Origin: Caldilineales bacterium | GTDB taxonomy: Bacteria; Chloroflexota; Anaerolineae; JAAEKA01 | Reading direction: 5' to 3' | Assembly (NCBI GenBank): GCA_025055015.1 | Contig: JANWYQ010000055.1 | Coordinates: forward strand, 41,371-105,370 | DNA: 64,000 nucleotides | Part shown: positions 42,802 to 47,388 of the stretch, one piece after another | Position numbering within the stretch: the first letter of the stretch is position 1 | Layout of the letters: each line of letters begins with the position of its first letter | Made by a program: the position numbers and the translations under genes | The notes under the pieces: model-generated | The model's input: only the letters and a program-made list of their open reading frames with translations | The model's database searches: none | What the model was told of the DNA's origin: nothing

Positions 42802-43552
42802 CATGAGTGTCCGACTCAAGTCCCCCCGAGCCAGCAAGGACGCAGTAATCTACCCAGAAAGCGACGGCAAGCCCATGGCCGAGTCCGACTTGCACCGCGA
42901 GATCATGGTCTACATCATCCACCTCTTGCAGCGGTGGTTCAAGGGGCAGCAGGTGTACGTCAGCGGCAACCTGTTACTCTATTACGAGGAGGGCAACCCG
43001 CGCAAGGTGGTGGCCCCTGACTGCTTCGTGGTGTGGGGCGTGCCCCCGCACCGCCGGCCGATCTACAAGCTGTGGGAGGAGGGCAAGGCGCCGGGCGTGG
43101 TGTTCGAGGTCACCTCCAAGAGCACCCGACACGAGGACTGGGTCACCAAGATGCACCTGTACGCGCGGCTGGGCGTGCAGGAGTACTACCTTTACGACCC
43201 CACGGGCGACTACTTGCGGCCCACGCTGCAGGCGTTCGTGCTGGAGGGCAAGCACTTTGTGCCCATGCCGCCGGCCAACCGGGGGACCCAGGTGGGTGAG
43301 CTCTCCCTGGCGCCGGCTGCCGACGAGCCGCCGGAGTACGTCAGCCCGTTGCTCGGCCTGCGCCTGGCCTTGAACGAGGACGGGTGGCTGGTGTTCTACG
43401 ACGAGGCCACGGGCCAACGGCTGCTCAGCGACGAGGAGGCGCGCAGGCAGGCCGAGGAGGAGCGGGCCCGCGCAGAAGCAGCTAGATCGCAGGCCGAGCA
43501 AGAGAACGCCCGCCTGCGCGCTGAGCTGGCCCGCCTGCGCGGCGAGGCATAA
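42802..43552 (+). CDS. Uma2-family (DUF820) putative PD-(D/E)XK endonuclease with C-terminal coiled-coil tail
   Basis: Characteristic YPESDGKPMAES...E...NLLLYYEEG...PDCFVV...FEVTSKST motifs of Uma2/DUF820. Located 23 nt upstream of the PHP-UvrD gene on the same strand. Confidence 0.8.
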
Positions 43553-43575
43553 GATCGTCCCGGCGGCTTTCCCCC

Positions 43576-46500: not shown

Positions 46501-47388
46501 CTGATCGAGGCCTTCGAGCGCTCCGGCATCCCCTACCAGACCGTTGGCCAGACACCCTTGGCCGCCCACCGGGCCGTGCGCGAGGCGCTGGCCTGGCTGT
46601 GGCTGCTGCACAACCCACGGTCGGCGGTGCATCAAGGGGTGGTGTTGAGGGCGGCAGGAGCGGAGGAGGGAAAGGCGGGCAGAGGGGAGGAGCGGCCGGA
46701 ACCTCGGAGGAACTGGGAGGAACAGGGGGGAACTGGGAGGAGCTGGGAGGAACTGATGGAGTCGGTGCGGGACCTGCCTGAGGCGACGGCGGCGCAGCGG
46801 CGCAGGCTAGAGGCGGTGGCAGCGTTCTGGCAAGAGCTGACGGCGGCGCAGCAGGCAGGCGAGACGGTGGCTCAGCTTCTGGGCCGGGTGCAGGCGTGGC
46901 TAGGCCGGCACCGGGCCGAGCCGCTGAGCGAGGCCGACGGCGAGCGGCTGGCTCAGCTGGCCCGGCGCAGCCTGCCCTTTGGCGTTGACCTACCGGCCTT
47001 CCTGGAGGCCATGGCCCTGCAGAGCGAGACCGACGCCTACGACCCGCGCGCCGACCGGGTGGCCCTGATGACCCTACACGCAGCCAAGGGGCTGGAGTTC
47101 CCCGTGGTCTTCATCGTCGGCTGCGAGGAGGGCTTGCTGCCCTACCGGCGCCCTGGCCGCCCAAGCGACCTGGACGAGGAGCGCCGGCTGTTCTACGTGG
47201 GCGTCACCCGCGCCCAGCGGCGGCTGTTCTTGGTGAGCGCTCGCCGGCGCTTCCTCTTCGGCCAGGCCATGGAGAACCCGCTCTCCCCCTTCGTGGGCGA
47301 CATCGAGGCCGCGCTGAAGGAGGTGCGCGCGGCGCAGCGCCGTCCACCCAAGCCGAAGCCGGCGGCCGAGCAGCTCAGCCTGTTTTGA
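43576..47388 (+). CDS. PHP-domain (TIGR00375-like) - UvrD/REP superfamily-1 helicase fusion protein, 1270 aa, with three low-complexity inserts
   Basis: N-terminal PHP motifs DLHIHSHFS and IPAHIWTPW. UvrD motif I AGPGTGKTRTL. Motif II VDEYQDIN. C-terminal motif VI VGVTRAQRRL. Purine-rich insert-encoded Gly/Glu linkers and an eightfold SPLPAP repeat. Confidence 0.8.
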   Translation: MHLVADLHIHSHFSRATSKDLTLEHLARWAQLKGVHIVGTGDIAHPGWLAELRSQLEPAEEGLYRLRDELAAAVQRQLPPACQRPVRFILAGEISNIYKKAGATRKVHHILFAPDLDTLERLQARLERIGNIRADGRPILGLPSRDLLEIALTVNPRCHLIPAHIWTPWFALLGSKSGYDSVEQCFEDLTPHIFALETGLSSDPPMNWRVSALDRYTLVSNSDAHSPSKLAREATLFDCEPAYDALFDALRSGDPARFKGTVEFFPEEGKYHLDGHRACGVRWEPQETLAHGGLCSVCGKPVTVGVMHRVEQLADRPVGGRPPRTPPYYSLVPLPELLGEMLGTGPASKQVEAEYFRLLGRLGPELEILLTVPLEEIRAVGGERLAEGIGRMRRGEVEAVGGYDGEYGVIRVFPAGRDWVAAGQMGLFQEEGRGEEGVTEAGGTEAEGTEGTEGAGGRGTGGTRDAGGTKGKRATVREERASYESEAARMADYSPLVQAGASPFDPVPARLVDAEPPRREAGSPLADPDVAHAPVPDPSLRAAGAVQPAANSPLPAPISPLPAPSSPLPAPPSLLPAPSSPLPAPSAPLPAPISPLPDLLSGLNPEQAAAAQTVDRPLVIVAGPGTGKTRTLTVRIAYLIQALGVPPEQVLAITFTNKAAEEMAERLIALLGQDTARRVTVKTFHALGAALLREHAGRLGLSPQFTILADEDRRSLLKGLAPELSQADLDRALALISAAKNQLLPPDAADLAAKPPELPQFPQLFSAYDTALRRADAVDFDDLLALTVRLLEEHPDVLAAVQARFRWISVDEYQDINLAQYRLLRLLAGGGTNLCVIGDPDQAIYGFRGADRRYFLSFEQDFPAAQRIVLHRNYRSSQAILDAAMQVIGRDGGRRPSLEAAAALADFAEQVKLAVYAAPTDKAEAEYVVHQIEQMVGGTSYFSLDSGRVQGAEPTAARSFADFAVLYRLAAQSRPLIEAFERSGIPYQTVGQTPLAAHRAVREALAWLWLLHNPRSAVHQGVVLRAAGAEEGKAGRGEERPEPRRNWEEQGGTGRSWEELMESVRDLPEATAAQRRRLEAVAAFWQELTAAQQAGETVAQLLGRVQAWLGRHRAEPLSEADGERLAQLARRSLPFGVDLPAFLEAMALQSETDAYDPRADRVALMTLHAAKGLEFPVVFIVGCEEGLLPYRRPGRPSDLDEERRLFYVGVTRAQRRLFLVSARRRFLFGQAMENPLSPFVGDIEAALKEVRAAQRRPPKPKPAAEQLSLF

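Follow-up and report, generated by a model that had tools for sequence, protein, structure and literature searches.

The EndoQ-helicase locus

The DNA analysed here, called the window in what follows, is a stretch of 64,000 nucleotides with a G+C content of about 69% from a Caldilineales bacterium (Chloroflexota; GenBank assembly GCA_025055015.1, contig JANWYQ010000055.1, positions 41,371 to 105,370 of the forward strand). All positions given below are those of the window unless a locus of another genome is named. The gene under study (43576-47388, forward strand) codes for a protein of 1270 residues in which an Endonuclease Q (EndoQ) module is joined through a low-complexity linker to a PcrA/UvrD-type helicase module. 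It is preceded on the same strand, after a gap of 23 nucleotides (43553-43575), by a gene of the Uma2 (DUF820) family. This arrangement had been described in a first-pass annotation of the window and is borne out here; only the start of the Uma2 reading frame had to be moved, from 42802 to the ATG at 42803, whereas its end, its length and its family assignment stand. That annotation took both genes for a plausible nuclease/PHP/helicase module of DNA processing or defence that is not a named system. Instead, we consider it likely that the 1270-residue protein is a single-polypeptide, clamp-tethered "nick-and-unwind" enzyme of DNA repair, the long bacterial form of EndoQ, and that Uma2 is co-transcribed with it but incidental.

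The EndoQ module

The N-terminal part of the protein had been assigned to the PHP domain with a likeness to TIGR00375. The assignment holds, but it left unrecognised that this "PHP domain" is, as judged by homology, a complete EndoQ. Residues 5-410 span positions 2-374 of the 374 positions of the TIGR00375 model, and the Joint Genome Institute (JGI) labels relatives as "TIGR00375 family". A phmmer search against the sequences of the PDB retrieved the EndoQ structures of Pyrococcus furiosus (5zb8 and 7k30-7k33; E 1.5e-53), with a match that covers residues 5-382 of the 400 residues of the chain and spans the PHP, Zn-binding and C-terminal helical domains.

The residues involved in catalysis can be placed one by one. 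The metal ligands H8, H10, E76, H84, H139, D193 and H195 of the P. furiosus enzyme, whose roles come from a structural study (PMC5961232), correspond to H8, H10, E93, H108, H164, D223 and H225 of the fusion protein. H139 is also one of the residues of the lesion pocket, together with G169 and S171 (PMC8307549), and the latter two are found here as G199 and S201. The zinc ligands C249, C252, C268 and C271 correspond to H276, C279, C295 and C298. All these positions of the fusion protein are invariant across six aligned relatives.

EndoQ cuts the DNA strand on the 5' side of deoxyuridine (dU), deoxyinosine (dI) and abasic (AP) sites; the ends of the nick are a 3'-OH and a 5'-phosphate, and the sliding clamp stimulates the enzyme. 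With respect to the known enzymes (P. furiosus PF1551, PDB 5zb8/7k30, and those of B. pumilus and B. subtilis, YqxK-type), homology is full-length over the three domains, the metal ligands and pocket residues are identical, and a clamp motif follows the module in both cases, being a PCNA-interacting protein (PIP) box in archaea and a QxxLF motif in the fusion protein. However, the fusion protein adds a disordered linker of about 180 residues and a helicase of 672 residues, and its first zinc ligand is His instead of Cys.

The helicase module

The C-terminal 672 residues align with residues 8-661 of the 724 residues of Geobacillus PcrA (PDB 1pjr; phmmer E 3e-108). Residues 599-1263 match PcrA, Rep and UvrD (PF00580, E 6e-79; PF13361, E 3e-43), so that the complete UvrD-type helicase of the first-pass annotation is confirmed. 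The superfamily 1A (SF1A) motifs Q, I, Ia, II, III, IV, V and VI are all present, and the stretches GPGTGKT, TFTNKAA, VDEYQD, GDPDQAIYGFRGA, NYRS, TLHAAKGLEF and VGVTRA are invariant in the alignment of the family.

The seven helicase motifs and the 1A/1B/2A/2B layout are common to the fusion helicase and to PcrA, UvrD and Rep (PDB 1pjr, 2is1 and 9dci). However, several characters separate them. About 60 residues at the end of PcrA, which we take to be its RNA-polymerase-binding C-terminal domain, have no counterpart in the fusion helicase. The 2B region of the fusion helicase is poorly conserved and partly of low complexity, and its scores remain under the equivalog cut-offs. The fusion helicase possesses, besides the clamp motif at its C-terminus, an insert that is absent from PcrA 1pjr (VHQIEQMVGGTSYFSLDSGR, residues 929-948, nucleotides ~46360-46419). 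Fourteen of the 20 positions of this insert are invariant among six aligned fusion proteins, and the insert is a possible signature of the family within domain 2A.

The best NCBIfam match of the module is PcrA (TIGR01073). Together with the end-to-end alignment with PcrA and with the absence of a second UvrD-like gene from the 64 kb of the window and from all the 20-kb flanks, this match could indicate that the gene is the housekeeping PcrA/UvrD of the organism, active in nucleotide excision repair, mismatch repair and replication-transcription conflicts, to which an EndoQ domain has been added. However, the match reaches 483.6 bits (model positions 1-651 of 725) against a PcrA equivalog cut-off of 911 bits. 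To this are added the missing end of PcrA and the unconserved 2B region, which is almost absent from the helicases of 483-507 residues that some genomes encode as separate genes. Moreover, the family occurs in actinomycetes and myxobacteria, which also carry canonical UvrD/PcrA paralogs. A housekeeping PcrA with an extra domain is therefore an improbable description of this gene, and a dedicated repair enzyme built on EndoQ is the preferred one.

Clamp-binding motifs

The C-terminus of the fusion protein reads ...PKPKPAAEQLSLF and ends in QLSLF, which conforms to QL[SD]LF, the bacterial β-clamp-binding consensus. A second motif of the same type, QMGLF, is located shortly after the EndoQ module. 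Both are putative sliding-clamp motifs, recognised as sequence motifs only. An exact Q[LM]xL[FL] end is present in 95 of the 120 best homologs, and about 19 more carry it with one or two extra residues. In loci of other phyla with a complete 3' end it is found in 49 of 61, most of the remaining ends being near-matches (such as QAGLF, QLSFF or QLRLI), all of them after a basic stretch. The internal motif is less general: a Q[LMI]xLF sequence situated 12-19 residues past a GYDGEYG anchor was detected in 77 of the 120 close homologs.

A C-terminal PIP box mediates the binding of archaeal EndoQ to PCNA, which stimulates the enzyme (Shiraishi et al. 2016, PMC4858679). Supplementary Fig. S1 of the same paper indicates putative β-clamp motifs at the C-termini of bacterial EndoQ homologs, which comprise short forms of 405-464 residues and long forms of 945-1244 residues. 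Among the latter is a protein of Caldilinea aerophila (WP_014432234, 1134 residues, QLGLF at 1130-1134), an organism of the same phylum and class as that of the window. The fusion protein shares with these long homologs the size class and the motif of the QL[SD]LF type at the extreme C-terminus, although it is longer (1270 residues) and has a longer linker with an expansion of SPLPAP repeats; for WP_014432234 the comparison is by description only. The fusion protein and the long EndoQ homologs of that paper almost certainly constitute one family.

The helicase domain goes unmentioned in the cited text on the long homologs, and no description of an EndoQ-helicase fusion was found in the accessible literature. 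Miyazono et al. (2018, PMC5961232) cite three EndoQ families "based on the domain organization". Judging by the lengths, there is little doubt that one of the three is the helicase fusion. The family studied here is thus the long bacterial EndoQ joined to a helicase, of which earlier work has tabulated members together with their clamp motif.

The linker and its repeats

Residues 416-598 vary in length and in sequence among relatives (alignment A1). The SPLPAP repeat of the first-pass annotation is real, but its eightfold count is not: there are seven xSPLPAP heptads, four of which read SPLPAP exactly. The inserts said to interrupt the helicase are likewise to be relocated, since it is the linker, before helicase residue 599, that contains both the repeat and the first Gly/Glu/Thr-rich stretch (residues ~430-470). 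Only the second Gly/Glu-rich stretch (residues ~1030-1065, nucleotides 46685-46755) is inside the helicase, in its 2B region. Tandem Repeats Finder (TRF) also reported shorter GGA/GAG-rich arrays at 44878-44981 and 46685-46755.

The closest database relative of the fusion protein, P0001 (97% identity), possesses two heptads where the window has seven, and differs elsewhere by three substitutions (alignment A1). Because P0001 lacks exactly five heptads (35 residues), the array is copy-number polymorphic. The sequences point to a product of slippage that varies between strains within a disordered spacer; the Gly/Glu-rich stretches, too, are spacer that is not conserved and differs from strain to strain. 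A fusion protein with an even longer linker (1365 residues) is encoded in a member of the same clade (L084, 8704-12801). This protein has no precomputed Pfam record, so that the database annotation of the family is uneven.

Distribution of the family

Scanning one genome per species, an EndoQ locus was found in at least 598 species genomes, 80 of which were kept for study. These 80 loci span about 20 phylum-level groups, including Chloroflexota, KSB1, Desulfobacterota, Myxococcota, Actinomycetota, Planctomycetota, Gemmatimonadota, Bacteroidota, Omnitrophota, Verrucomicrobiota, Acidobacteriota, Binatia, Spirochaetota and Pseudomonadota. At the protein level, the best 120 matches, mostly from Caldilineae or Anaerolineae, all share the same architecture (987-1243 residues, with PF27218 (MJ0043_C) and UvrD domains). 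A search with the EndoQ domain (E<=1e-30) retrieved the representatives of 1143 clusters formed at 50% identity, and about 120 of the 150 best-scoring ones have at least 1000 residues.

In 73 of the 80 loci a helicase follows EndoQ directly on the same strand, the two being fused or contiguous in 68 and split into two genes in five; the seven others have EndoQ alone. The split genes belong to Planctomycetales (L046, 2219-5007; L055, 4731-7462; L057) and Omnitrophota (L026, 10001-12907; L049). In these loci EndoQ has 430-438 residues and carries its own QxxLF-type motif, which is located at the stop in four of them and, as QLSLW, four residues before the stop in L055. The separate helicase, of 483-507 residues and with 2B nearly absent, ends in QxxLF too. 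That the same two modules are fused in most lineages and encoded by adjacent genes in others is strong comparative evidence that nickase and helicase work together.

The genes around the fusion are far less constant. BLASTP clustering of the open reading frames (ORFs) within 5 kb of 84 loci gave no family present in more than 12 loci, and the most frequent one occupied variable positions. When the ORFs 5' of the fusion were classified with Pfam in 71 loci, they proved to be a heterogeneous set of housekeeping character, with leucyl-tRNA synthetase (LeuRS) four times, Metallophos three times, and dnaN, RdgC, PIN and nitroreductase twice each. In two loci dnaN, coding for the β clamp of DNA polymerase III, is immediately 5' of the fusion gene, which is suggestive in view of the clamp motifs, although the numbers are tiny; RdgC occupies that place in two others. 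Synteny is conserved within families such as Micromonosporaceae.

Activity against phages with dU-containing DNA has been speculated for Bacillus EndoQ (PMC8307549), and the helicase part of the fusion matches the PADLOC profiles of GajB and of the UvrD-like helicase associated with defence-associated reverse transcriptases (DRT). Accordingly, the protein could be imagined as a stand-alone anti-phage factor that nicks and unwinds invading DNA containing uracil or non-canonical bases. However, these matches (E ~1e-90) are generic, at the level of the UvrD fold only. Whereas Gabija consists of GajA and GajB, no GajA ATPase-TOPRIM gene and no reverse transcriptase partner are found nearby, the neighbours of the fusion in the window being Uma2, an AlkZ-related gene and an RNase/barstar pair. 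The neighbours are of a housekeeping kind: polyamine synthesis and the AlkZ-related glycosylase in the window, and LeuRS, dnaN and RdgC elsewhere. Synteny within families and the near-universal clamp motifs are more easily reconciled with an enzyme of chromosome maintenance than with a mobile gene for defence. An anti-phage role is thus unlikely, and a clamp-tethered enzyme of chromosomal repair accounts better for these data. As for the defence module of the first-pass annotation, nothing places the gene in a defence island: PADLOC gave generic GajB and RTasHel matches and a weak match of Uma2 to PDC-S03, and these were rejected as evidence of membership in a defence system.

The Uma2 gene

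The Uma2 assignment is firm: the protein scores 65 bits with the Pfam model against a cut-off of 27 (match over residues 23-136 of 249), and its core PD / EVxS / K...EY..DP aligns to the solved Uma2-fold proteins 9y1l, 6okh and 1wdj. Outside the Pfam match there is an Arg/Glu/Ala-rich C-terminal tail (EEARRQAEEERARAEAARSQAEQENARLRAELARLRGEA, residues ~200-249, nucleotides 43400-43549) that is probably a coiled-coil. A Uma2 protein encoded in the KSB1 locus L004 shares a tail of this type.

By tblastn with the Uma2 of the window and by a hidden Markov model (HMM) of the subfamily, built from the 120 homologs closest to that protein, Uma2 was found beside the fusion gene in two near relatives, L081 and L082, and in one KSB1 metagenome-assembled genome (L004, 38% identity). 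The divergent Uma2 genes of L001 and L008 were recovered only with a Pfam scan and a broader iterative HMM. These distant Uma2 genes are located two genes upstream of the fusion, with a nitroreductase gene between, and L004 turned out to possess a second Uma2. In 77 of the 80 loci of other genomes there is no Uma2 within 10 kb.

On usable contigs, the Uma2 homologs nearest in sequence (84%, 83% and 67% identity) are each part of a syntenic block composed of the AlkZ-related gene (reverse strand), Uma2, the EndoQ-helicase gene, the RNase gene and the barstar gene. This block marks a clade of Caldilineae with an identity of at least 79% in the EndoQ domain; at 77% or less no neighbour is retained. 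One locus inside the clade (L083, 85%) keeps all the other genes of the block but has no Uma2. In addition, the family is multicopy. Three Uma2 paralogs are among the top matches on a single record of 14.3 Mb, two copies are found within 20 kb in L004, and 15 copies have been reported in Thermus thermophilus, together with large expansions in cyanobacteria (PMC1274311).

The first-pass annotation called the pair "operon-like", which is reasonable for the window. A TGnTACAAT element is present 5' of Uma2 in the window and in three relatives, and directly 5' of the fusion gene in L083, which has no Uma2; in five loci it coincides with an invariant T..TACAATAG block. From its sequence and conservation, this element (TGTTACAAT in the window) is the likely promoter of Uma2 and the fusion gene. 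Since the two genes share this conserved element, and no terminator-like site was found in the gap of 23 nucleotides between them, they are probably co-transcribed in the window. However, this is not general: in L082 (82% identity) the two genes are separated by 193 nucleotides that contain a terminator-like hairpin (1109-1133; CTCCGTCGAACGGAG followed by GGCTATTTTT).

Uma2 and the EndoQ-helicase could still constitute a functional two-gene module for repair or against phages, in which Uma2 would be a second nuclease that cuts, for example, the flap or the opposite strand. The common strand, the short gap and the shared promoter-like element point in this direction, as do the maintenance of the adjacency down to 67% Uma2 identity within the clade, the independent Uma2 genes found 5' of the fusion and on its strand, next to it in L004 and one gene away in L001 and L008, and the weak match of Uma2 to the PADLOC candidate family PDC-S03. 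Against it stand the rarity of Uma2 in the other genomes, the integrity of the rest of the block (AlkZ-related gene, fusion, RNase and barstar) in L083, the multicopy character of the family, the hairpin of L082 and an upstream census in which Uma2 is not enriched. Moreover, every neighbour is conserved within the clade, so that the adjacency is ordinary synteny.

Taken together, such a module is very unlikely. The module proposed in the first-pass annotation lacks support because the PHP-UvrD family is very widespread and independent of context, while the adjacency of Uma2 is confined to one clade. Across the fusion-bearing genomes the adjacency is not conserved, which is largely the outcome that the annotation itself had named as contrary to its proposal. 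The adjacency is better regarded as local synteny of the ordinary kind, at a place where a multicopy gene has been inserted or deleted, and Uma2 as a lineage-specific neighbour that is not a required partner; its pairing with the fusion represents no new system. A true partnership in the Caldilineae clade, possibly extending to other genomes rich in Uma2 (L004, L001/L008), in which Uma2 would cut the displaced lesion-bearing flap or turn the nick into a double-strand break on foreign DNA containing uracil or hypoxanthine, would be the first role for this large family without an assigned function, but we give it very little credence.

Proposed function of the EndoQ-helicase

The single-polypeptide repair enzyme that we favour would act in several steps. 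The β clamp would recruit the protein to DNA, as PCNA does for archaeal EndoQ. The EndoQ module would then flip out the deaminated or abasic nucleotide (dU, dI or AP site) and cut the phosphodiester bond on its 5' side. UvrD and PcrA translocate in the 3'-to-5' direction and can start at nicks. The tethered 3'-to-5' helicase would accordingly load at the nick, move along the intact strand and peel off the 5' end that bears the lesion, which a 5' nuclease (Pol I, FEN or RecJ) could then remove. Gap filling by a polymerase and sealing by a ligase would complete the repair.

This scheme would follow the logic of the MutL/MutH-UvrD and UvrABC-UvrD pathways, in which a helicase of the UvrD type enters at a lesion- or signal-specific nick and strips away the damaged strand. 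The difference is that here nickase and helicase are joined in one polypeptide, or encoded by adjacent genes, and that recruitment is apparently achieved through the β clamp. The literature calls the steps that follow the EndoQ nick unclear, and a review postulates "DNA helicase and FEN1, DNA pol and ligase" downstream of it (PMC8438529). The coupling to a helicase points to a concrete downstream step, namely clamp-tethered unwinding from the nick at the lesion. Reviews also confine EndoQ to few bacteria, which does not fit the breadth of the long form, with at least 598 species genomes spread over about 20 phylum-level groups.

Several points weigh against a clamp-tethered repair enzyme of this kind. 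Neither module reaches the curated threshold of its family model: EndoQ scores 160.3 bits with TIGR00375, whose cut-off is 326.6, and the low TIGR01073 score of the helicase has been given above. The zinc site is HCCC instead of C4, its first ligand being His and not Cys. The direction taken by the helicase from the nick is one that we infer. EndoQ assays have so far covered the short Bacillus and archaeal forms only, and no long form. Finally, two further lineages (L004 and L001/L008) also have a Uma2 gene 5' of the fusion and in the same orientation, which may reflect a loose association.

Neighbouring genes

The features of the region are collected in Table 1. The AlkZ-related gene diverges from Uma2 and the EndoQ-helicase gene, so that two genes of DNA-repair type share one promoter region. 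It occupies the identical position in every member of the clade (L083, L084 and L087-L091). Its ORF was listed with 341 residues, whereas gene calls in relatives give 285-287, and the true start is probably near 42575. A forward-strand ORF at 41541-42233 is the antisense shadow of this gene. A conserved block, CATTGTAGCC, is found at its promoter match (upstream alignment A3).

Downstream of the fusion, the ribonuclease and barstar genes that the first-pass annotation had described as a secreted RNase/immunity pair were confirmed. The RNase carries a signal peptide of the lipoprotein type with the lipobox ...MVAAC, and barstar gene calls are present in L081-L083. The pair adjoins the fusion gene throughout the clade and nowhere else; the RNase is a neighbour of the repair gene and no part of it. 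An Rfam scan of the whole window gave no matches. The barstar gene is followed by a polyamine operon (48765-51407), in which an ORF at 49449-50300 that overlaps the arginase/agmatinase-family gene is in the wrong frame.

Table 1. Genes, protein modules and sequence elements around the EndoQ-helicase gene (window positions)
Feature	Position	Strand	Evidence or remark
AlkZ-related gene (HTH_42-type DNA glycosylase family)	41685..42707	-	PF24741 AlkZ-rel, E 1.5e-30; divergent from Uma2
Sigma-70-like promoter match (TTGCCA-17-TACAAT) for the AlkZ-related gene	42594..42622	-	Consensus match only; same element in L082
Extended -10-like element TGTTACAAT	42746..42754	+	Conserved; 48 nt 5' of the Uma2 ATG
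Uma2 (DUF820) PD-(D/E)XK family gene, 249 residues	42803..43552	+	PF05685, E 7.5e-18
EndoQ module of the fusion, residues 1-415 (PHP catalytic, Zn-binding and C-terminal helical domains)	43576..44820	+	
Low-complexity linker, residues 416-598	44821..45369	+	Non-conserved; alignment A1 of relatives
Internal QMGLF, residues 424-428, clamp-binding-like	44845..44859	+	
21-nt tandem repeat, 7.2 copies, encoding xSPLPAP heptads	45217..45367	+	TRF score 218
PcrA/UvrD-type SF1A helicase module, residues 599-1270	45370..47388	+	phmmer against PcrA 1pjr
C-terminal QLSLF, residues 1266-1270, β-sliding-clamp consensus	47371..47385	+	Basic stretch before it
Guanyl-specific ribonuclease (barnase/RNase Sa family), secreted or lipoprotein	47693..48232	+	PF00545, E 3.9e-24
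Barstar-type RNase inhibitor, 145 residues by analogy with gene calls of relatives	48297..48734	+	PF01337, E 2.8e-22
Pyruvoyl-dependent arginine decarboxylase	48765-49424		Polyamine operon
Arginase/agmatinase-family gene	49453-50373		Polyamine operon
Deoxyhypusine-synthase-like gene	50427-51407		Polyamine operon

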